Source of the DNA: an uncultured Pseudobdellovibrionaceae bacterium
GTDB taxonomy: Bacteria; Bdellovibrionota; Bdellovibrionia; Bdellovibrionales; UBA1609
Length of the DNA: 64,000 nt
NCBI GenBank assembly: GCA_964389375.1
Contig: CAYMDP010000010.1
Coordinates: forward strand, 9,849 to 73,848
Direction of reading: 5' to 3'
This document shows, one piece after another, positions 8,291 to 63,324 of the stretch. The translations under genes were made by a program, and so were the position numbers. The notes below the pieces were generated by a model. That model saw nothing but the letters and a program-made list of their open reading frames with translations. It did no database searches and had not been told where the DNA came from. Each line of letters begins with the position of its first letter. Positions within the stretch are counted from its first letter, which is position 1.

Positions 8291-8387
8291 AGGCCATGGA
8301 GATAGCGCATCCCCTAGTCTTGGTCAACAGAGCTAAGATGGCTTTAGTGCCAACCCATGATATTTCCTCTCAATCAACTTATTATCT

Positions 8388-8506
8388 GAGAAATTCTTCT
8401 ATCTAAATAAGTGTCCGCCGAAGACTAGTTCCGGAGGGGTGCCGAAGGCAGTCCGAGGATGTTCGACGGCTGAGGTGGAGCACTTATTTAGATAGAAAAA
8501 TTTCTC
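8388..8506. repeat. Hairpin element, copy A (short variant) of the conserved-core family
   Basis: Arms 8388-8413 and 8481-8506 are complementary (26 nt, 1 mismatch). The core starts GTG|TCCGCCGAAGACTAGTT and ends GTTCGACGGCTGAGGTGGAG|CAC. It lies between the stop of the 8533 gene and the trhO start. Confidence 0.9.
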
Positions 8507-8532
8507 TGTCAAAATGCGAGGATGCAAAATCT

Positions 8533-51429: not shown

Positions 51430-54400
51430 ATGTCATTTGTTCACCTTCACGTTCATTCTCAGTACTCGCTTCTAGATGCCACCATCCGGGCAAAGGCGCT
51501 TGTTAAGCGCGCGAAGGAGTTTAATCAGCCTGCAGTTGCCTTGACGGATCTTGGAAATTTATTTGGCTGTATTGAGTTTTATTTTGCGGCTCTTGATGCG
51601 GGAGTAAAACCCATCGTAGGACTTGAAGTGTATATCGCGCCGAAGGGTCGTTTGGTTAAGGGCGAGGATAAAGACGCAAGTCATATGCCGAACCGTCGAT
51701 TGGTTTTGCTGGCCCAAGATATGGACGGCTATCACAGTCTTTGTGCCCTCAGTACGATTGGTTATCAAGAGGGTTTCTATTACCGTCCTCGCGTTGATTA
51801 CGAAGTTTTAAAAAAACATAATAAGGGTCTAATTGCATTAACCGGCGGTCTAATGGGTGAAGTCCCTTGGACTTTTAAAAATCGTGGACCCGATGAAGCT
51901 TTGCAAAAAATTAAGGAACTTAAAGACATCTACGGAGACGGTCTTTATCTCGAATTGAATCGAACCGGAGTTCGAGACTGGGACGACATTAATCCTTTTC
52001 TTGTTCAAGCTGGAAAAGACTTAAGTGTTCCCATTGTGGCTACGAATGATGTTCATTACCTTCATCAAGAAGATCAGCTGGCTCAGGAAGTTTTGATTTG
52101 TATTGCTTCCAACAAAACCCTGCAAGATGAGTCTCGATTTAAACTGGGAACGGATCAGTTTTATTTTAAAAGTACAGAATCCATGCAGTCTCTTTTTCAG
52201 GATCTTCCTGAGGCGATTGCCAATACCGAAGTCATCATGAATCGGTGCAATCTAAAGTTTAAGCTTAAAGATGAAGAGGGAAAGCCCATCTATCACTTGC
52301 CGACATTCCCGACCGCTGAAGGAGTTGGACTTGCTGAAGAGATCAAAAGACTTTCTTTCGAAGGTCTTGAGGTCAGGATCGAGCAAGCCAAAGCGCGCGG
52401 CGAAGAGATCGGTCCCGAACAACGCGAAGTTTATAAGCAGCGTCTTGAGTTCGAGTTAAAAGTTATTAATGGAATGGGTTTTGATGGATACTTTTTAATC
52501 GTTCAAGACTTTATTAATTGGGCCAAGAAAAATAATATTCCAGTCGGCCCGGGACGGGGATCAGGGGCAGGCTCTTTGGTCGCCTATAGTTTGTTTATTA
52601 CCGATCTTGATCCCATGCCTTACAATTTGATTTTCGAGAGATTCCTAAATCCCGAGCGTATTAGCATGCCGGATTTTGATATCGATTTTTGCCAAGAAAA
52701 CCGCGGCCGGGTCATTGATTATGTGACCGAAAAATACGGGCAACAAAGCGTGTCCCAGATTATCACTTACGGAAAACTTCAGGCTAGGGCTGCAATCCGC
52801 GATGTTGGGCGAGTTCTAGGAATGACCTATGCCGATGTGGATGTGATTTCAAAACTGATGCCTGATAAGTTAGGGATCACACTAGGTGAGGCCATAGAGC
52901 TTGAGCCACGCCTTCGTGAGATGATGGACCAAGATCCCAAGGTCGCAACCCTTATGGATTTGGCGCAAAAAGTTGAAGGTCTTGTTCGCCATGCAGGGAT
53001 TCACGCCGCAGGTGTTGTCATTGCCGATGGATCGATCATGGATCATGCGCCCCTTTATCGTGGGGCTGACGGAGAAAACGTCGTTCAGTATGATATGAAA
53101 CATGCTGAAAAAATTGGGCTAATTAAGTTCGATTTTCTTGGATTAAAAACCCTGACCCATATTCAAGATGCCTTAAATCTTGTTGAAAAAAATCGTGGCA
53201 AAAAAATTGCGACGACCGAGATCTCACTTAAAGACCCTGGTATTTATGAAATCATGTGCAAAGGGGATACGGCCGGGATTTTTCAGTTCGAAGGTGAGGG
53301 CATTACAGACCTAATCCGAAAAGCCAAACCAAATTGTTTTGAAGATATCGTTGCGATCAATGCCCTTTATCGCCCAGGTCCAATGGATATGATTCCGGAC
53401 TATCTTAAGCGAAAAAATGCGGAAGTTTCGGTTTCGTATATTTTTGATGAACTCGAGCCTATTTTAAAAGAAACCTACGGGATCGTGGTCTATCAAGAGC
53501 AAGTCCAAATTGTTGCAGCTAAAATTGCCAACTACTCCCTTGGTGAAGCCGATATGCTTCGAAGAGCCATGGGAAAAAAGATTGCCGAAGAGATGGCCAT
53601 TCACAAAACTCGCTTTTTAAAGGGCGCTGAAGAAAACAAATTTGATTTAAAAAAAGCAGGCGAGTTGTTTGATACCATGGCCGAGTTTGCGAAGTATGGA
53701 TTTAATAAATCCCATGCTGCCGCATATTGCGTGGTTGCCGCCCAAACAGCCTATCTAAAGAACTATTATCCCGTCGAATTTTTTGCAGCACTTTTAAGCA
53801 CGGAGATGAGCGACACGGATAAGGTCGTCAAATACGTTAAAGACGCACAAAAACGTAAGATCGAAGTTTTGCCTCCTCATGTGAATCACTCAGAATACAA
53901 GTTTTCGGTTCGAGGGGATCAAATCTTATTTTCTTTAGGTGCCATTAAAGGTGTGGGCCAAGGCGCTGTTGAAGCGATTGTCGAAGCCCGTGAAAAATTA
54001 GAGTCTAAGAAATTTGAGTCCTTAGATCAGTTTTTTGAAAGCCTTGATCTAAGACGGGTCAATAAAAAGACGATCGAAGCTTTAATTAAAGCTGGGGCCT
54101 TAGATGGCTTTAATGCAGAACGCTCTGAATTGATGGAAGGCTACTCGCGATTTATTGAACGTGCAGATCGAATTAAAAAAGATCGTGACCTGGGCCAGGT
54201 CAGTCTTTTTGCAATGGATGAGGAACTCACTAAGTCCGAGAGAGTCGTTTTGGAAAAAAAGGCCCCCTGGCCAAAATCCGCAAGCCTTGCTTTCGAAAAA
54301 GAAGTCCTCGGCTTTTATTTAAGTGACCACCCCCTGAAGGGTCTTGAAGCCGTTATGAGTCTTTGGTCAAAAATTAATGTCGAAAGTCTTAAGACTTTGC

Positions 54401-54903
54401 CGCCAAAATCAACGGTTCAGCTTTTTGGATTAGTCTCGAGTTTAAAAGAGTTTATTACCAAAAAAGGTACACGCATGGCCTTTTCTTCGATCGAAGATTT
54501 AACGGGTCGTGTGGAAGTCGTCGTTTTTCCAGATACTTTTGCGAAGACCGAGTTAATTTTAAAAAGTGAAGTTCCAGTCTTGATCTACGGCCAACTTGAG
54601 CGCGACGGAGAAGCCTGTAAGATTTTGCTCGAAGATGTGAAGCGAGTGGATGATATCTTTCAGCGTGCGAAAAAAATGACCTTTAAAATTTCTGAGGGCA
54701 TGGATGATCGCTTCGACAAACTTAAGGCTTTAGTCGAGCGTTACCCCGGAAACACAAGTCTTGGATTCCAAATGAAGCTTCAGAATCCCGATGCTGTTGT
54801 CGAACTGGATCTCTTAGAGCCCAAAGGCGTCCATGCGGGGCAAGAATTCTTCGAAGAAGTCCAAGGACTCTTTGGCCGCTCGGATTTTATCTCTCTGAAC
54901 TAG
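51430..54903 (+). CDS. dnaE: DNA polymerase III alpha subunit
   Basis: 1157-aa ORF with a PHP domain (FVHLHVHSQYSLLD), polymerase core motifs (PDFDIDF, GLIKFDFLGLKTL, YRPGPM) and an OB-fold C-terminus. Confidence 0.95.
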   Translation: MSFVHLHVHSQYSLLDATIRAKALVKRAKEFNQPAVALTDLGNLFGCIEFYFAALDAGVKPIVGLEVYIAPKGRLVKGEDKDASHMPNRRLVLLAQDMDGYHSLCALSTIGYQEGFYYRPRVDYEVLKKHNKGLIALTGGLMGEVPWTFKNRGPDEALQKIKELKDIYGDGLYLELNRTGVRDWDDINPFLVQAGKDLSVPIVATNDVHYLHQEDQLAQEVLICIASNKTLQDESRFKLGTDQFYFKSTESMQSLFQDLPEAIANTEVIMNRCNLKFKLKDEEGKPIYHLPTFPTAEGVGLAEEIKRLSFEGLEVRIEQAKARGEEIGPEQREVYKQRLEFELKVINGMGFDGYFLIVQDFINWAKKNNIPVGPGRGSGAGSLVAYSLFITDLDPMPYNLIFERFLNPERISMPDFDIDFCQENRGRVIDYVTEKYGQQSVSQIITYGKLQARAAIRDVGRVLGMTYADVDVISKLMPDKLGITLGEAIELEPRLREMMDQDPKVATLMDLAQKVEGLVRHAGIHAAGVVIADGSIMDHAPLYRGADGENVVQYDMKHAEKIGLIKFDFLGLKTLTHIQDALNLVEKNRGKKIATTEISLKDPGIYEIMCKGDTAGIFQFEGEGITDLIRKAKPNCFEDIVAINALYRPGPMDMIPDYLKRKNAEVSVSYIFDELEPILKETYGIVVYQEQVQIVAAKIANYSLGEADMLRRAMGKKIAEEMAIHKTRFLKGAEENKFDLKKAGELFDTMAEFAKYGFNKSHAAAYCVVAAQTAYLKNYYPVEFFAALLSTEMSDTDKVVKYVKDAQKRKIEVLPPHVNHSEYKFSVRGDQILFSLGAIKGVGQGAVEAIVEAREKLESKKFESLDQFFESLDLRRVNKKTIEALIKAGALDGFNAERSELMEGYSRFIERADRIKKDRDLGQVSLFAMDEELTKSERVVLEKKAPWPKSASLAFEKEVLGFYLSDHPLKGLEAVMSLWSKINVESLKTLPPKSTVQLFGLVSSLKEFITKKGTRMAFSSIEDLTGRVEVVVFPDTFAKTELILKSEVPVLIYGQLERDGEACKILLEDVKRVDDIFQRAKKMTFKISEGMDDRFDKLKALVERYPGNTSLGFQMKLQNPDAVVELDLLEPKGVHAGQEFFEEVQGLFGRSDFISLN

Positions 54904-54907
54904 TTCG

Positions 54908-55070
54908 TTTCAAAACTCTGTTTGCAATAAGAATAAGTGCTCCGCCTCAGCCGTCGGACATTCTCGGTCGGCCCCTAGGATTTAATTTGATAACCCGGAT
55001 TAAATTTGGGCCGACCTGCGAAACTAGTCTTCGGCGGACACTTATTCTTATTGCAAACAGAGTTTTGAAA
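54908..55070. repeat. Hairpin element, copy B of the conserved-core family (inverted relative to A and C)
   Basis: 32-nt arms 54908-54939 and 55039-55070 are exact reverse complements. The core contains CCTCAGCCGTCGGAC (54945-54959) and GTCTTCGGCGGA (55027-55038), which are the reverse complements of the copy A/C core ends. An inner stem GGTCGGCCC/GGGCCGACC is also present. The element starts 5 nt after the dnaE stop. Confidence 0.9.
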
Positions 55071-55240
55071 GATTTTGTAGATAAAATCCTCGGGACCTTA
55101 TGCATCGTTTTAGACTCTTTTCTGGACTCTTTGGGCAATTCGCTTTGGAGTGTGAAGATTTTCAACATCCAGCCAGCGGCACTTTTTCAGTTCGTAAGCA
55201 GAGATCCGGGATGTCTATTCGACTAATCTGGGGAAATCCA

Positions 55241-55567
55241 TTTTTTTGAAGTTCTTCTTCTAATTTTTAAAGTGTCCACCGAAGACCGGGTTGTATCCTA
55301 CAAATCCAGTCCATAGATGACGCCGAGATTTTTACTTATGGTGAGGCGCGACGACGATGGACTAGCGCAAGCTAATTCGAGGAGGAGCAACGAAGCCATA
55401 AGCAAAAATAACAAGTCAGCTATGGACTGGATTTGTAGGATACAGCCCTGTTTCGCAGGGCGGCCCAAAGGTCGACCTGGTTATTAAATATAGCCGACGG
55501 GCCGACCGAGAATGTCCGACGGCTGAGGGGGAGCACTTTAAAAATTAGAAGAAGAACTTCAAAAAAA
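55241..55567. repeat. Hairpin element, copy C of the conserved-core family, carrying two nested inner hairpin modules
   Basis: 34-nt arms 55241-55274 and 55534-55567 are exact reverse complements. Core ends are TCCACCGAAGAC (55275-55286) and GTCCGACGGCTGAGG (55514-55528). The nested module has 29-nt arms 55288-55316 / 55420-55448 (one T:G position). Inside that is a 13-nt-arm hairpin 55329-55341 / 55396-55408. Confidence 0.9.
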
Positions 55568-55608
55568 TATTTTTGTAAGTTCGCGGATTACATCTTTCGT
55601 GAATGTCT

Positions 55609-56721
55609 CTATTGAGAGTGGAGTCGGTTTCGCCAGAGGATGGGGCTTTTGATTAGGTTGTGGAGTAGGCTGGCTAGGGTCACTGCGATGAACATCAGGA
55701 ATCCTATTGGGAAAAACAGGATTCCGATCCAGGAAAATTCGCCGTAACTTTTGATAAGGGTGAAGAGTGCGAAAAGGGAGAGAGTGACTAGGAGTAAAGA
55801 AGCCGGGGTGCTGCCCCAGAGTCCCATTCCGCTGAGTGCAAAAAACACACTTGTGACTTTTAGAAAATCCAAGGGAGAGCTATATTTTTGTCCGAATCTA
55901 AAGATTCGGACCCAGCCTTTCCAGAATTCTTTAAAGCTGGAATACATTCGAACTTGATAGAGAGGACTCTTCGAGATTTCGTAGCGTCCTTGATTTTTAA
56001 GGCTTAGTTCAGCGATGGCCATGTCGTCTGCGGATTCATTGCGTACACTTTTGTGAGCTTCAATTTTTTCGTAAAAACTTCGTTTAAAAAGAAGAAACTG
56101 ACCGATGGCGTAGGGTTTTTTCCCATGGCTTGATGCAAAGGCCCTAGAGGCTATAAGCGTGAGGATTTGAAAGCTTCCCATGGCTTTTTCCCAAAGGCTT
56201 GGCGCCTTGTGAAAGGGGAGGGAGCTTAATAGATCTAGATCTTGATCTTTCATCATTCGAAGGGCTGTGCTGATTTGTTTTAGAGAATGAAGTGTATCGG
56301 CGTCGGTAAAAAGAATAAATTCTTTCGTGCAAAGCTTGGCCCCTTGATAGCAGGCCCAGTTTTTTCCTCTCCAACCGGCCTCTAGGGACTGCCCTTTAAG
56401 GACCCGACAGTTGAACTGAGTTGCGATTTCAGATGTTTTGTCCGTGGATTGATCGTCGACAACTATAATTTCGCTTATCTGTGAAGTTTTAGAGTGAGTT
56501 GTTAAGCTCGGCAGCAAGAGCTTTAGATTATCTTCTTCATCGCGGGCGGGAATGACGATCGACAATGAGTTTAAAAGATTTTGGTCGAATTCACTGTGCT
56601 TAATTTGATTTTGCTTAGCCTGGGAAATGCTTTTTGCGGCTTGCCCTAGGGCCTTAAAGAGTTCGCTGAGCCCGTAAATTGCGAAGGCTAAACTAAGTCC
56701 CGACCAAAGAGTGAACTCCAC
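55609..56721 (-). CDS. Family 2 glycosyltransferase, CrtQ-like (candidate carotenoid glycosyltransferase)
   Basis: 370-aa ORF with IVIPARDEEDNL, VVDDQSTDKT, AGWRGKNWACYQG, FTDADT and terminal TM helices. This motif order resembles staphylococcal CrtQ as I recall it, and the gene sits next to a crt cluster. Confidence 0.55.
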   Translation of the reverse strand: MEFTLWSGLSLAFAIYGLSELFKALGQAAKSISQAKQNQIKHSEFDQNLLNSLSIVIPARDEEDNLKLLLPSLTTHSKTSQISEIIVVDDQSTDKTSEIATQFNCRVLKGQSLEAGWRGKNWACYQGAKLCTKEFILFTDADTLHSLKQISTALRMMKDQDLDLLSSLPFHKAPSLWEKAMGSFQILTLIASRAFASSHGKKPYAIGQFLLFKRSFYEKIEAHKSVRNESADDMAIAELSLKNQGRYEISKSPLYQVRMYSSFKEFWKGWVRIFRFGQKYSSPLDFLKVTSVFFALSGMGLWGSTPASLLLVTLSLFALFTLIKSYGEFSWIGILFFPIGFLMFIAVTLASLLHNLIKSPILWRNRLHSQ

Positions 56722-59082: not shown

Positions 59083-60162
59083 TTGAAATCTGCCCCCGAA
59101 GCCGTTAAGGTTCTCGGGTTAAATCGAAATTTCGAGGGGTTCTTTTTGCTTCAAAATTTAGAGCACTTTCCTAAAGAAGAGGCCTTGCCTCTGGTGGAAA
59201 GTTTTATGCAGCAATTAATTTTGAAAGATGGCCCGGGCCCCCTGGCCGCGATGCTTCTGGAGCATCTTTCAAGCGGAGGTCGACGTTTGCGGGCTCATCT
59301 GTCGCTCGCCGTCTTCCGCAGTTTAAATTGCGATATTCAATCTGTCCTTCCTTGGGCTGCGGCTTGTGAACTTCTGCATAATGCCACTTTAATTCATGAT
59401 GATATTCAAGATGGGGATCTCATCCGGCGAGGGCAAAAGACTTTGTGGGCTCGTCACGGGATTGCTCAGGCCATAAATGCGGGCGATCAAATGTTGATTC
59501 TTCCCTTTCGCGCCTTGTGCGAGCTGAAGGCCTCTTCAGATTTAAAACTTCTTCTTAACGAGGAACTGGCTCAGTGTGCGTCTCGTGTTGTTCAAGGCCA
59601 GACTGAAGAGTTTCATCTTAAGAGTGAAATAGATCAGCCGAATTTATGGGACCGCTATTTAAAGGTGATTGATTGTAAAACCGCGGCCTTATTTGGTAGC
59701 CCAGTGTTTGGGGCTCTTTTGCTCGCTGGAGAAAGTCCAGAGGAGGCTAAAAAAGCAAAATTTGTTTTTGGGCGGCTTGGACGTGCCTTTCAGTTGGTTG
59801 ACGATCTAGTCGACCTAAAGGGGCGTAAAAAGGGTCGAAGAGCGGGTGATGATTTGCGTGAGGGAAAAGTCTCAAGCCCCTTGGTGAAGTATCTCGAAAT
59901 TCGTCATGAAAAAAAACAAGACATCAAAACTTTGATTCATCAAAATCGTGGCGAAAAAAATGAAGAAGTGGTGCAAAAGATTTTGTGGGAAATGGACGAG
60001 CTTGGACTGTCACAGTTAATTGAAGTCGAGGTCCAGTTATTATTAGAATCCTTTCAGTCGGAAATTTCGGTCATCTCGGGAGGAAGGCTTTCTGAAATTG
60101 CGAATCAAATTTGCAAAAAAATTCTTCAACCTTTAAGTGAATCGAAGGTGATCTATGTCTAA
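59083..60162 (+). CDS. crtE: Polyprenyl (geranylgeranyl) diphosphate synthase, CrtE-like
   Basis: First Asp-rich motif LIHDDIQDGD and second LVDDLVD, in a crt gene context. The start is uncertain: the TTG at 59083 lies only 6 nt after the -10-like box, and the first in-frame ATG is at 59206. Confidence 0.75.
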   Translation: MKSAPEAVKVLGLNRNFEGFFLLQNLEHFPKEEALPLVESFMQQLILKDGPGPLAAMLLEHLSSGGRRLRAHLSLAVFRSLNCDIQSVLPWAAACELLHNATLIHDDIQDGDLIRRGQKTLWARHGIAQAINAGDQMLILPFRALCELKASSDLKLLLNEELAQCASRVVQGQTEEFHLKSEIDQPNLWDRYLKVIDCKTAALFGSPVFGALLLAGESPEEAKKAKFVFGRLGRAFQLVDDLVDLKGRKKGRRAGDDLREGKVSSPLVKYLEIRHEKKQDIKTLIHQNRGEKNEEVVQKILWEMDELGLSQLIEVEVQLLLESFQSEISVISGGRLSEIANQICKKILQPLSESKVIYV

Positions 60163-61699
60163 GTCAGATCTTCCTGTGATTGTTATTGGATCAGGTTTTG
60201 GTGGGATGGCTTCCGCGGTCCGCATGAGAGCAAAGGGTTATAAAGTAATCCTTCTTGAAGCCCATAATCAACTCGGGGGAAGAGCCGCTGTTTTTAAGCA
60301 AGACGGCTTTACTTTTGATGCCGGTCCAACCGTTATCACGGCTCCTTATTTAATCGCAGAACTTTTTGAAATGCTCGGTGAGGACCCTAAGGATTTTTAC
60401 GAGCTGATGCCCGTCGATCCCTTCTACCGAATTCTTTACCCTGATGGATCTCAGTTTGATTATGTCGGAGATGAAGATCGGCTGATCGAAAATATTCGAA
60501 AGCTTAGCCCCGAAGATGTAGAGGGTTACAAAAAATTAGCTGAACACTCGAGTCGAATCTTTGATGTAGGTTATACCCAGCTTGCAGATCAGCCCTTCCT
60601 TCGGGTTTCAGATATGCTTCGTGTGTTGCCGGATATGCTAAAGCTTGAAAACTATAAAACGGTTTATGCATTGGTCTCTAAGTACATTAAGGACGAACGG
60701 CTCAGGCAGGCCTTTAGCTTTGAGCCCCTTTTGGTGGGTGGGAATCCATTTCAGATCACCTCAATTTATCTTTTAATCCATTGGCTCGAAAGAAAGTGGG
60801 GTGTCCACTTTGTTAAGGGTGGAACCACAGCCTTGGTTGAAGCCTTTGGACTTTTGATGCAAAAACACAATATCGGAGTTCGACTGAATACAAAGGTCTC
60901 TAGGATTGATGTTGAAGAGGGTAAAGTGCGGGGAGTCGTGACGGACTCTGGAGAGCGCATCGCTTGCCAGATGGTGATCTCAAATGCGGATCCAATTAAA
61001 GTTTATTCTGAGATGGTGGATAAAAAATTTCGTAAAAAAAATACGGACCGCTCGCTTAAGAATAAAAGAAGCTCGATGGGTCTATTCGTCGCTTATTTTG
61101 GAACAAAGAAAACTTACCCAGAGCTTGCGCACCACACGATAGTTCTTGGGCCTCGGTACAAAGGGCTGTTACATGATATTTTTAACAAGAAGGTCCTTGC
61201 CGATGACTTTAGCCTTTATCTTCATGCACCCACTCGTTCGGATGCAAGCATGGCTCCTGAGGGGCATGAGTGCTTTTATGTTCTTTCTCCGGTCCCAAAC
61301 AATCAAAGTGGATTAAATTGGTCTGAAATTGGGGATGCTTACTGCGACAAAATTTTGTCAGCACTCGAAGATAAACTTCTGCCTGGCTTAAGGGAAAACT
61401 TGGTGACGAAGCATTTTGTGACTCCGGATTATTTTGAAAAGACTTTGCACAGCGCAAGGGGAGCGGGCTTTGGAATTGAGCCCTGTTTTACTCAGTCGGC
61501 CTATTTTCGCTTTCATAATAAGTCGGAAGATATTGAGGGCTTATATTTTGTAGGGGCCAGCACTCATCCCGGAGCCGGTGTTCCAGGAGTTTTATCTTCA
61601 GCAAAAGTTTTAGAGAGATTGATTCCTGATTTGGATCGAAGACGACCTTTACCGATTGTGCAGAATGCGATGCCACGTGATTTGGAGGCCCCGCTGTGA
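60155..61699 (+). CDS. crtI: Phytoene desaturase
   Basis: 514-aa ORF with an N-terminal FAD fold VIVIGSGFGGMASA and a C-terminal CrtI-type motif YFVGASTHPGAGVPGV. It overlaps crtE by 8 nt. Confidence 0.9.
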   Translation: MSKSDLPVIVIGSGFGGMASAVRMRAKGYKVILLEAHNQLGGRAAVFKQDGFTFDAGPTVITAPYLIAELFEMLGEDPKDFYELMPVDPFYRILYPDGSQFDYVGDEDRLIENIRKLSPEDVEGYKKLAEHSSRIFDVGYTQLADQPFLRVSDMLRVLPDMLKLENYKTVYALVSKYIKDERLRQAFSFEPLLVGGNPFQITSIYLLIHWLERKWGVHFVKGGTTALVEAFGLLMQKHNIGVRLNTKVSRIDVEEGKVRGVVTDSGERIACQMVISNADPIKVYSEMVDKKFRKKNTDRSLKNKRSSMGLFVAYFGTKKTYPELAHHTIVLGPRYKGLLHDIFNKKVLADDFSLYLHAPTRSDASMAPEGHECFYVLSPVPNNQSGLNWSEIGDAYCDKILSALEDKLLPGLRENLVTKHFVTPDYFEKTLHSARGAGFGIEPCFTQSAYFRFHNKSEDIEGLYFVGASTHPGAGVPGVLSSAKVLERLIPDLDRRRPLPIVQNAMPRDLEAPL

Positions 61700-62568
61700 A
61701 GGCGGAGCTGCAAAAATCCCTTAAACCAAATCCCGCAATGGCCCAGCATGCGAAGTCCTTTTCGTGGGCTTCTTTCTTTTTTTCTTCAGAAGTTTTCTAC
61801 GATGTTTGTGCGCTTTATCTTTTTTGCAGAACGGTCGATGACATTGCAGATAAAGAAGAGCCATCTCGGGCAAGGGGGCGGCTGAATGACTTAAAAGAGA
61901 AGCTGTCTCAATTTCATCCCGAGGATAAATTTACGGACCAAAGCCTTCACAATTTGCATCGACTTCATTTTGAAAAAGGCCTACCTCTTGCCCAGGCTGT
62001 CGAATTGATTGACGGGGCACTGAGTGACCTGGATCGCAGTCGTGTCGCAGATGAAGCTGAATTCTTGCATTACTGCTACCAAGTCGCAGGGACTGTAGGT
62101 TTGATGATGTGTCCTTTGATTGGAGTTCGTGATCCGATGGCGGCTGAGCACGCGAAGAGTCTTGGCATTGCCATGCAAATGACCAATATTTGTAGAGACG
62201 TCAAAGAAGATGCCGAGATGGGCCGAGTGTATTTGCCCGAAACATGGTTAAGTGAAGTCGGTCTAAGTTCTGAGCAAGTATTAAATGGACAGGCGGATTC
62301 GGCAAAGCTTTCAAAGGTGGTGTGCCGAGCCCTTTCCTTGGCCGATCAGTACTACCGCCATGCGGATCGTGGGATGGTCTTTATTCCTTTTCGTCCACGT
62401 TTAAGTATTGTGGTGGCGAGCCGAATTTATAGAGCCATTGGTTTAGAGCTGCAAAAACGTCGATTTAACCCAATGTTAGGACGAGTTTTTGTAAGCCCCT
62501 ATAAAAAAATAATTTGGTCACTAAAAGCAGTTTGGGCGGCCGTGTTTGCTGGCGCAATAAAGGGCTAG
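61696..62568 (+). CDS. crtB: Phytoene synthase
   Basis: Squalene/phytoene synthase signatures YLFCRTVDDIAD and MQMTNICRDVKEDAEMGRVYLP. The GTG start overlaps the crtI stop (GTGA). Confidence 0.9.
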   Translation: MKAELQKSLKPNPAMAQHAKSFSWASFFFSSEVFYDVCALYLFCRTVDDIADKEEPSRARGRLNDLKEKLSQFHPEDKFTDQSLHNLHRLHFEKGLPLAQAVELIDGALSDLDRSRVADEAEFLHYCYQVAGTVGLMMCPLIGVRDPMAAEHAKSLGIAMQMTNICRDVKEDAEMGRVYLPETWLSEVGLSSEQVLNGQADSAKLSKVVCRALSLADQYYRHADRGMVFIPFRPRLSIVVASRIYRAIGLELQKRRFNPMLGRVFVSPYKKIIWSLKAVWAAVFAGAIKG

Positions 62569-62571
62569 TCG

Positions 62572-63324
62572 ATGACCTATATGCAGTTTCATTTTATCTT
62601 TACCTTGCCTCTGATGAGCTTATTTCTGTTTTTGTCCATTAAGAAATATCCAACAGAATTTAAACCCTACGCTTTGGGGATGGCCCTACTTTCGGTTTTG
62701 GCTCTGGTCTACACCACTCCCTGGGATAATTACATCGTCGCAAAGGGGGTTTGGTCCTATCCCCCGGACAGAGTTCTTCTAGTCATCGGATATGTCCCCT
62801 TCGAAGAGTATCTGTTTTTCTTGATTCAAACTTGGTTGTCGGGATCCTTCTTTTTTTTACTGACCAGAAAATTTCCAGAAAAATTTGTCGCAAAAAGATC
62901 TTGGGCCTTAAATATATCTGCTGGAGTTTTTTCTCTTCTTCTTTGCGGCACTGGGGTTTACTTCCTGTTTTCGGATTCAACATTTTATCTAGGGATGATT
63001 TTATCTTGGGTGGCTCCTGTTTGGGGTCTTCAGTGGGTCTATGCTTTGGATCATCTGGTGCGTAACATAAAAATTGTTTTTGGATCAATTCTGATGCTTT
63101 CAGTTTACCTTTCGGTTGCAGATAAAATTGCAATCTCGAGTGAGATTTGGACGATCTCAGATCAATTTACGACTGGAATTCAGCTTTTTGGTCTTCCCAT
63201 GGAAGAAGCACTGTTCTTTTTTGCCACAAATGTAATGGTCATTCAGGGCCTAAGCTTATTTGTTGCAGGCCCCAGATACTGGCCCTTTAGGGCTTTTCCA
63301 CGTGTGATGTCGCGCGTTTTTTAG
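62572..63324 (+). CDS. Fused CrtYc/CrtYd-type lycopene cyclase
   Basis: 250-aa polytopic protein with the duplicated lycopene-cyclase-domain motifs TPWDNYIVAKGVWSY..PFEEYLFF and IWTISD...LPMEEALFFF. Confidence 0.8.
   Translation: MTYMQFHFIFTLPLMSLFLFLSIKKYPTEFKPYALGMALLSVLALVYTTPWDNYIVAKGVWSYPPDRVLLVIGYVPFEEYLFFLIQTWLSGSFFFLLTRKFPEKFVAKRSWALNISAGVFSLLLCGTGVYFLFSDSTFYLGMILSWVAPVWGLQWVYALDHLVRNIKIVFGSILMLSVYLSVADKIAISSEIWTISDQFTTGIQLFGLPMEEALFFFATNVMVIQGLSLFVAGPRYWPFRAFPRVMSRVF

Follow-up and report, generated by a model that had tools for sequence, protein, structure and literature searches.

Just downstream of dnaE, a 64,000-nt stretch of DNA from an uncultured Pseudobdellovibrionaceae bacterium (contig CAYMDP010000010.1, positions 9,849 to 73,848; below, the window) carries a hairpin at 54908-55070, which is one of ~45 copies of a non-coding, hairpin-shaped DNA repeat. 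With a little more confidence than doubt, we take this repeat for a non-autonomous mobile element in whose stems one arm is re-templated from the other. The repeat, here called family A, has not been described previously; it belongs to Bdellovibrio-like bacteria, and its folded center is conserved across the phylum Bdellovibrionota. Interspersed repeats of bacteria, such as the repetitive extragenic palindromes (REP), the REP doublets forming hairpins (REPIN) and the miniature inverted-repeat transposable elements (MITE), are seen as repeats in which the ends are conserved and the middle is free to vary. In family A this layout is turned round, and the reversed arrangement has been kept across a predatory bacterial phylum. 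This raises the questions of what reads an unpaired motif of ~20 nt on the tip of a hairpin and of how stems of 30-60 bp stay perfect while outpacing their surroundings. The original prediction, made from the letters of the window, had already called a conserved core with variable arms the opposite of a classical MITE; this holds for the ~45 copies of the genome and for the homologues found phylum-wide.

The hairpin downstream of dnaE

The upstream neighbor of the hairpin is dnaE (open reading frame 51430-54903; NF004226, 1427 bits) with the stop codon TAG at 54901-54903. The left arm (54908-54939, TTTCAAAACTCTGTTTGCAATAAGAATAAGTG) is 100% complementary to the right arm (55039-55070) across a spacer of 99 nt, just as had been read from the sequence; the hairpin does lie directly 3' of dnaE, with 4 nt between the stop codon and the arm. 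By chance a perfect 32-nt inverted repeat is expected ~1e-12 times within 64 kb. Folding yields a single rod-like hairpin over 54908-55070 with −53 kcal/mol as DNA (z = −11 versus shuffles) and −90 kcal/mol as RNA (z = −12 versus shuffles), and it confirms the predicted inner stem of the core, in which GGTCGGCCC(C) at 54966-54975 is paired to GGGCCGACC at 55008-55016.

The reference strand of family A, read from the left to the right core word, is the minus strand at this copy. The core (54940-55038, minus strand) is asymmetric and 99 nt long, and it belongs to the 94-nt size class, the size being measured between the conserved words. It starts with C54940, an unpaired junction base equivalent to the bulged G of the reference strand, and continues with stem P2, made up of TCCGCC (54941-54946) and its partner GGCGGA (55033-55038); among family-A copies the P2 pair covaries GC/GU/AU. 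Two conserved words are read on the minus strand, the mostly unpaired GTCCGACGGCTGAGG (54945-54959) and the unpaired GAAGACTAGTTT (55021-55032), of which the first 11 nt are GAAGACTAGTT and which in other copies is the insertion site of a second hairpin, element E (see below). The apical domain (54966-55016), a stem GGTCGGCCCC/GGGCCGACC around an AT-rich sub-hairpin, is variable in length between size classes. Within the left arm the inner ~12 nt (TAAGAATAAGTG) fit the inner consensus of the family, and the outer ~20 nt are specific to the copy.

Family A in the source genome

The source genome (G000) comprises 2.96 Mb with 45% G+C in 100 contigs, the window being part of contig 10. In the window the core words were found three times, at 8461-8475 (+), 54945-54959 (−) and 55514-55528 (+), where 0.17 were expected; the strands differ, and the dnaE copy is therefore inverted with respect to the other two. 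The second copy (8386-8508, plus strand) has a core of the 62-nt class and arms of ~26-28 bp with one C.A mismatch. The third copy (55240-55568, plus strand) has perfect arms of 35 bp (55240-55274 and 55534-55568) and a core split after GAAGAC by element E. The ends of the dnaE core had been recognized before in elements placed at 8388-8506 and 55241-55567, and it is at these two places that the core recurs.

A search of the whole genome for the core words, which had been suggested as a check, retrieved further copies, 45 left-right pairs in all, on many contigs and several of them at contig ends, where the elements break short-read assemblies. Alignable are 39 compact copies in size classes of 62, 64, 74, 94-97 and 120 nt, the difference being confined to the apical domain. 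The cores are at least 95% identical, in contrast to the arms, and their unpaired words are near-invariant, GAAGACTAGTT being identical in 34 of 35 intact copies. The junction AAGTG...CACTT, said to bound the conserved part always, does so in 34 of the 39 aligned copies; the variants AAATG, AATAG, AAGTT and AAATC are also seen.

Inside the core, too, pairing is kept while the letters change. In the 74-nt class the inner stems are copy-specific and yet perfect (TTCTCCTT/AAGGAGAA, GGCCCCTT/AAGGGGCC, TGCTTCTT/AAGAAGCA, TGGGTCTT/AAGACCCA and TGTTCCTT/AAGGAACA). In an alignment of 13 sequences 99.3% of the cells were paired, with 35 cells changed on both sides and 4 on a single side; the 500 shuffles all scored lower, and slid controls were paired to 26-48%. 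For P2 the 13 copies gave 7 GC, 3 GU and 2 AU, with the G.T intermediates on one strand only.

Arms that change in step

The arms are 30-37 bp long in most copies and have 0-2 mismatches. Anchored at the junction they follow the consensus cTTTTCAGAGAAnTTnTTTnCATTTTAATAAGTG, of which the inner ~13 bp (ATTTTAATAAGTG) are well conserved and the outer part is weakly conserved and T-rich; the outer consensus TTTTCAGAGAA, examined as possible conserved MITE termini, is weak, with 0.2-0.7 bits per position. On either strand the arms are T-rich at the start and A-rich at the end. Their mean pairwise identity is 49% (39% in the middle) versus ~29% for random sequences of equal composition, and the most similar pair reaches 82%. 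The claim of the original prediction that copies have nothing in common beyond the junction was too strong in view of the fixed arm length, the inner consensus and this mean identity.

The mismatches in the arms are 7 transitions and 6 transversions. Taken as would-be G.T pairs, the transitions fall 4 on one strand and 3 on the other, with no wobble tolerance and no strand bias; the pairing is therefore kept in DNA and not in RNA. A 33-bp helix functioning as RNA would accept numerous G.U pairs as well as scattered single mismatches, and selection on folding cannot keep 30-60 bp perfect. Template-switch mutation perfects inverted repeats and makes multi-base compensatory changes (PMC8794818; PMC5941160). 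The pattern of the arms is what arm-to-arm templating produces, and from this pattern we infer template switching.

Orthologous copies were compared at six loci in a related genus of the same order, for which complete genomes are numerous, each of them with 4-6 copies that match the pattern. Between close species pairs the immediate flanks are 97-100% and the cores 92-98% identical, the arms only 72-75%. The differences between orthologous arms are mirrored on both arms, partly as blocks. At one locus there are two arm haplotypes, in which a block of 15-17 nt reads CTTGGCAGGGGCTTAGG or CTAGGAAAGGCCACACC, mirrored, with the inner 12 bp and the flanks identical. The block is found nowhere else in 44 genomes of the genus, and the idea that it was imported from a donor copy was rejected, since a block unique to its own locus was not brought in from another copy.

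Outward the arms often continue as degenerate complementarity to 55-70 nt, and arms from two other genera take in the 3' end of a tRNA gene (GGACACCA in one related genome), so arms can contain copied host sequence. At the dnaE copy GGATTTTATCT in the last codons of the gene (54882-54892, plus strand) has an exact inverted copy of 11 nt, AGATAAAATCC, past the right arm (55079-55089, plus strand), at offsets of 15 and 8 nt from the arm ends. These last codons are native, since homologues align to residue 98 of a 99-residue C-terminal query. The pair may be what is left of an earlier, degraded outer layer around the palindrome; we record this as a possibility and not as a result. The complementarity of the flanks scores above the 99th percentile of mismatched-flank controls, and the dnaE copy is one of only two such copies among 30 (p = 0.03); as a rule for the family, arms that are inverted copies of host flanks beyond the perfect arm were not supported, the signal being weak. 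Nor was support found for a target duplication of the palindromic apex, hinted at by TTGCAA in the dnaE arms and CAGAGCC at another locus (locus e): internal palindromes are not general in family-A arms.

Conservation of the core across the phylum

A search of 185,000 species representatives and of the JGI metagenomes for the exact 19-mer of the core gave nothing but chance matches in coding DNA. Being confined to one genome, the 19-mer speaks for a lineage-specific expansion, i.e., for copying. A match to a known Rfam family, which had been named as an outcome that would remove the novelty, was looked for: Rfam 15, searched permissively with E up to 10, gave only chance matches in the window (E at least 1.5), and on the homologous loci only spurious models of miRNA precursors and a neighboring tRNA. 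Plasmid, phage and viral collections contained no match to the element, and in the papers searched for Bdellovibrio repeats and for the motif strings no description of such elements was found.

A covariance model built from family A alone retrieved elements of the same anatomy in other genera of the order, in which a small core is enclosed by arms of about 20-40 bp; in the clearest examples these arms are perfect. Common to these and to family A is the motif AGTTCCGCAG, variable hairpin, CGAGGA(C)TGTCYGA (in its shorter form GTTCCGCAG, variable hairpin, CGAGGA(C)TGT), of which TAGTTYCGCAGG ... CCGAGRATGTYCGAC is the family-A version. The pattern is present in 37 of 201 genomes and 19 of 81 genera of the order and in 39 of 401 genomes of a phylum-wide sample that includes other classes, with reversed-pattern controls near zero in both. 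Of 10 loci inspected outside the order, 7 are embedded in long inverted repeats peculiar to the locus. A family-A copy combines the two features of the class, the core motif and the position of the core at the apex of a long inverted repeat that is (near-)perfect and specific to its locus. Upstream of a flagellar-hook-like gene (L152 in G190) there is a hairpin with 21-bp arms (GGAGGAACGAGTACTTATATT ... AATATAAGTACTCGTTCCTCC) whose center consists of N; it is presumably another copy of the class.

Filled and empty sites

In the related genus three pairs of filled and empty alleles were found, and in each the empty allele lacks the core and the inner arms and keeps a short palindrome of the outer arms, which shows that outer arms can do without a core. 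Between G076 (filled) and G150 (empty) 88 nt are missing, and the empty site GAAGTTTCTTTATTTAAAATAAAGAAACTTC is a palindrome with 15-bp arms, of which the outer 10 bp are common with the filled arms. G219 (filled) and G221 (empty) differ at the same locus, with a different outer hairpin. In G062 (empty) 124 nt are missing relative to G079, G072 and G114 (filled), and a palindrome with 22-bp arms is left. At the sites empty in G062 and G150 the element is present in near as well as in distant relatives, and by parsimony these two empties are therefore losses. At another locus the same imperfect outer hairpin TATCTATATATGAGCCC holds, depending on the species, two core subtypes with different inner arms, which suggests that re-entry into palindrome remnants occurs.

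Alleles of this kind bear on the first of the three readings, each correct only in part, that the original prediction offered, namely that only the core and a few inner base pairs are mobile and enter the tips of existing palindromes or terminator hairpins, the arms being the hairpin of the host. This we consider unlikely. The perfect outer-arm palindromes of G150, G221 and G062, when set beside their filled relatives, and the two subtypes in one outer hairpin are what it would lead one to expect, as are the position of most copies 2-14 nt past a stop codon and the behavior of element E, which enters another hairpin element site-specifically. By parsimony at least two of the three empties are losses, however, and palindromes without a loop are just what results when a hairpin tip is bypassed or deleted, so that the empties are no proof of a targeting of pre-existing palindromes. 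The check for empty sites, positive in the related genus, was negative in this genome, in which there is no palindrome of the outer-arm type without a core; for the same reason the variant that family A inserted into an older palindromic family was not supported. An exact look-up of the neighboring 192-aa protein, by which sister strains with empty sites might have been reached, gave no record, although near-identical records may be lacking from the collection. The fixed length and family consensus of the arms are unexpected of unrelated host hairpins. Moreover, arms of 30 bp and more, AT-rich and with T...A ends, are unlike the intrinsic terminators of this genome, which have GC-rich stems of 8-14 bp, a 5' A-tract and a 3' T-tract.

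Element E itself is a nested hairpin. In the third copy of the window it occupies 55285-55451 (plus strand; arms 55285-55321 and 55415-55451), the insertion spanning 55275-55455. It enters family-A cores at one specific site, directly after GAAGAC, and an identical E is present at this site in two family-A copies that differ in arms and apical class; E is therefore a mobile unit that targets another hairpin element. When E copies were compared, the loop differed by a few percent and a stem stretch of 13 nt at 6 positions, all of them mirrored. Further E loci in this genome are C5:42091-42315, C40:3662-3942 and C57:73-347. An internal stretch of ~50 nt (GGCGCGACGACGATGGACTAGCGCAAGCTAATTCGAGGAGGAGCAACG) also has matches in genomes from two further families of this order, and E thus belongs to a wider family of its own.

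A proposed mechanism and its weak points

We propose that the GC-rich, asymmetric core of ~60-120 nt with its near-invariant unpaired bases, a member of the core family seen across the Bdellovibrionota, is a sequence-specific module that would be recognized by a trans-acting protein copying or moving the element, probably as single-stranded DNA. The long AT-rich arms would be unconstrained in sequence except for the inner ~13 bp, and their complementarity would be upheld at the DNA level by templating between the arms, likely through intrastrand template switching (quasipalindrome correction) and possibly already at insertion. If one arm templates the other, any change in an arm, multi-base blocks included, is consequently erased or mirrored; the stems would drift faster than the neighboring DNA and never lose their pairing. 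The unit of core and inner arms can be lost, leaving the short palindrome of the outer arms, or be replaced by another subtype in the same hairpin. Copies would survive where they are harmless, mainly just 3' of stop codons, and there they may also act as RNA hairpins at 3' ends.

More tentatively, and with doubt outweighing belief, we suggest that the elements embody a hitherto undescribed mode of DNA propagation in bacteria, in which only the small structured core is sequence-specific, that each cycle of insertion or replication re-synthesizes one arm from the other, either hairpin-primed or by a template switch, and that this involves a new, phylum-specific and vertically inherited hairpin-recognizing enzyme other than a REP-associated tyrosine transposase (RAYT). 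Re-synthesis in each cycle would have the consequence that every copy has its own perfect palindrome and that the stems outpace neutral flanking DNA.

Quasipalindrome correction, or template-switch mutation, is a known replication error that has reportedly been worked out by Ripley and in the Lovett laboratory. The likeness lies in the copying of arm onto arm, which perfects repeats, makes multi-base compensatory changes and can extend arms (PMC8794818; PMC5941160; PMC7202029). The process is, however, described as sporadic and restricted to single loci and not as the standing upkeep of a multicopy family, and it explains neither the conservation of the core nor the spread of copies of family A. 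Family A and its relatives offer a natural system with many copies in which to study this type of mutagenesis, examined so far at engineered single loci.

Several points weigh against a mobile element with re-templated stems. No enzyme has been identified, and this genome harbors no long autonomous version, there being no left-right pair 300-6000 nt apart with complementary flanks. By inspection, the arm ends of 29 copies show no target-site duplication of more than 2 bp. No two of the ~45 copies share arms, and faithful copying of whole elements alone therefore cannot explain the family: either the arms acquire new sequence upon insertion or shortly afterwards, or selection preserves the cores of old copies. 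The 19 core nucleotides that are near-invariant across the phylum exceed what is typical of a selfish MITE and would equally fit a host-functional site. Relative to the nearest upstream gene, the reference strand runs antisense rather than sense in a ratio of ~15:4 (our own count, dnaE copy included; binomial p ~0.02), which hints at a strand-specific effect, on RNA or in replication, that the model does not predict. Template switching, finally, is deduced from the pattern alone.

Genomic setting and a possible function for the host

By type of intergenic region, 20 copies are convergent, 17 co-directional and 2 divergent. Most copies have a stop codon 2-14 nt from the outer end of an arm, and pairs of elements head to head are frequent. 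Elements thus lie within a few bases of the stop codons of essential genes, dnaE being an example. At two loci of the related genus the element sits in the transcribed leader upstream of a start codon, and in relatives it may therefore affect expression. In the leader of an acyl-CoA-dehydrogenase-like gene of the related genus (L102-L131) the species with a hairpin have the ribosome-binding-site block CGATCGAAGGGAAAT..ATG and those without it ..GGAGnnACCATG; three species have hairpins of unrelated apical sequence at the same place, and whole-leader haplotypes seem to have been exchanged by recombination.

A rival explanation is that the hairpin is a structured nucleic acid with a function for the host, its core being a conserved RNA of the 3'- or 5'-untranslated region, a processing or stability signal, or a site in DNA to which a conserved Bdellovibrionota protein binds, with a long closing stem at liberty to vary and old copies under selection. 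We regard it as quite improbable, but the phylum-wide identity of the core words keeps a host-functional RNA or DNA site a serious rival. It would account for the conservation of the motif across classes of the phylum, for the retention of orthologous copies across species with cores 92-98% identical, for the strong covariation, inner stems included, for the restriction of the G.T intermediates of P2 to one strand, for the orientation bias relative to the upstream gene and for the leader position at the two loci of the related genus. Against it stand the occurrence of both orientations, copy numbers that range from 0 to ~45 between genera with the subfamily 19-mer in one genome only, and a presence or absence that varies between close species. 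For an RNA in particular, there is the lack of an Rfam match, and Watson-Crick stems of 30-60 bp without G.U are beyond what selection on RNA folding can keep. A consensus scan called no intrinsic terminator at the element, and since a 3' U-tract is absent, the hairpin is not a canonical terminator. The second reading of the original prediction, a structured RNA with a covarying closing stem, hence fares in two ways: the covariation is strong, but G.U-free stems of such length with unbiased mismatches are a signature of DNA. Hammerhead, K-turn, T-loop, domain V of group II introns, parS, DnaA box and CR-I of RNase P were also compared, by eye only, and none of them fits.

RAYT genes and other known systems

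The third reading was that the hairpin is a substrate of a Y1 enzyme of the RAYT type encoded elsewhere. Two RAYT-like Y1 genes do exist in this genome, at C31:16019-16831 (minus strand; HUH motif NHYHLIV) and at C11:9539-10192 (minus strand), with a mutual identity of 35%. The repeats that flank the two genes in inverted orientation belong to two CGTC-containing REP families, one for each gene, GGTAACAGTTCCCTTTTCCCGTC with ~45 copies and AGGTGCCCGTCGTATTTTTGCGTAAC with ~30 copies, respectively; neither of them is family A. The two RAYT genes of the genome serve these other REP families.

That family A is a REP/REPIN-type element moved by one of these transposases is, in our opinion, very doubtful. 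Besides the two genes, it is true, Y1 genes are common in the order (133 of 201 genomes), extragenic hairpins at the 3' ends of genes, often as inverted pairs, are also typical of REP and of bacterial interspersed mosaic elements (BIME), and compensatory changes are known in REPIN hairpins (PMC3116915). The presence of Y1, however, does not track the core motif: G166, with 7 copies, is listed without a Y1 match, as are G004 and G011, and the motif-positive G091, G095, G055 and G067 are absent from the list of Y1 matches. REPINs and family A are alike as short non-coding extragenic hairpins in tens of copies, often just past stop codons and in inverted pairs, with compensatory changes in the hairpin and long persistence in a lineage, and REPINs are thought to move as single-stranded hairpins (Bertels and Rainey, 2011, PMC3116915; PMC8266576). 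They differ in that REPINs have conserved ends (the REP 16-mers) and a variable spacer, whereas in family A the middle is conserved and the arms vary, and in that family-A stems are perfect over 30-60 bp. Of the marks of a REP/REPIN-RAYT system, the conserved-end layout, the flanking RAYT and the co-occurrence with Y1, family A shows none.

A chance palindrome or an assembly artefact, for which one might cite the 100 contigs of the assembly and the several copies at contig ends, can be called refuted by ~45 anatomically consistent copies inside contigs, by homologues in complete single-contig genomes and by the chance expectation of ~1e-12.

Examples of bacterial MITEs are Correia/NEMIS, ERIC/IRU, RUP, BOX and Nezha. 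Like family A they are small, non-autonomous, dispersed repeats forming long hairpins, with intergenic regions as safe havens and with size classes due to indels. They have, however, conserved terminal inverted repeats, target-site duplications and a recognizable parent insertion sequence (IS), whereas in family A the termini are weakly conserved, duplications of more than 2 bp are not seen and no parent element was found in the genome.

Insertion into hairpins is known from IS1397 and ISKpn1, which enter the loops of BIMEs, and from IS621 of the IS110 family, which enters REPs. Such structure- or palindrome-directed insertion resembles that of E into the family-A core and the two subtypes in one outer hairpin; these IS differ in that they are protein-coding with sequence-defined targets, whereas the inserted unit here is non-coding and ~60-170 nt long.

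The attC sites of integrons are recognized as folded single-stranded hairpins, in which the structure and a few unpaired bases are conserved and not the sequence of the stem. They, too, are folded-hairpin sites directly past open reading frames, but they form cassette arrays beside an integrase and have conserved outer R and L boxes (GTTRRRY) around a variable center, whereas family A has the reverse layout and is dispersed among housekeeping genes. On reading the sequence no GTTRRRY box was seen at the arm ends; a search for IntI was not made.

Further hairpin families and neighboring genes

At least two other families of this genome are built alike, with a GC-rich conserved core inside perfect arms of 24-61 bp that are specific to the locus. 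The second family has a core GACTCTGAGTGGGTGCGTCGCGTCTTCGGATTGCGTCA..GCCGCAACCCGGATACGCGCCGCTCACCGAGA of 79-82 nt and perfect locus-specific arms of 29-61 bp; its loci include C1:135530-135703, C6:33110-33313, C13:58444-58628 and C50:18469-18654. At C6:33110 both convergent open reading frames extend 13 nt into the arms and hence end with the same codons. The third family, found among other places at C3:6591-6705, C37:20455-20583, C43:2749-2865 and C48:14213-14328, has a core of 43-44 nt (CTCCGCGGTCCAGGATGGACCGGGCGGCGAGGCAGGAAGCCGT), inner stems that covary and arms 18-43 bp long; related genera have its small hairpin YCCAGGATGGR also by itself between genes. The genome contains several REP-like families of the classical type, with conserved arms, as well; beyond the two that flank a RAYT gene, at least five such families have no RAYT.

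In the window the convergent neighbor of the elements (55609-56721, minus strand) encodes a GT2 glycosyltransferase with weak, sub-threshold matches to the HpnB and CruG models. The open reading frames some kilobases farther downstream, at 59083-63324 (plus strand), look like a cluster of the carotenoid type (polyprenyl synthase, desaturase and a phytoene synthase-like protein), as judged from reading the translations only.

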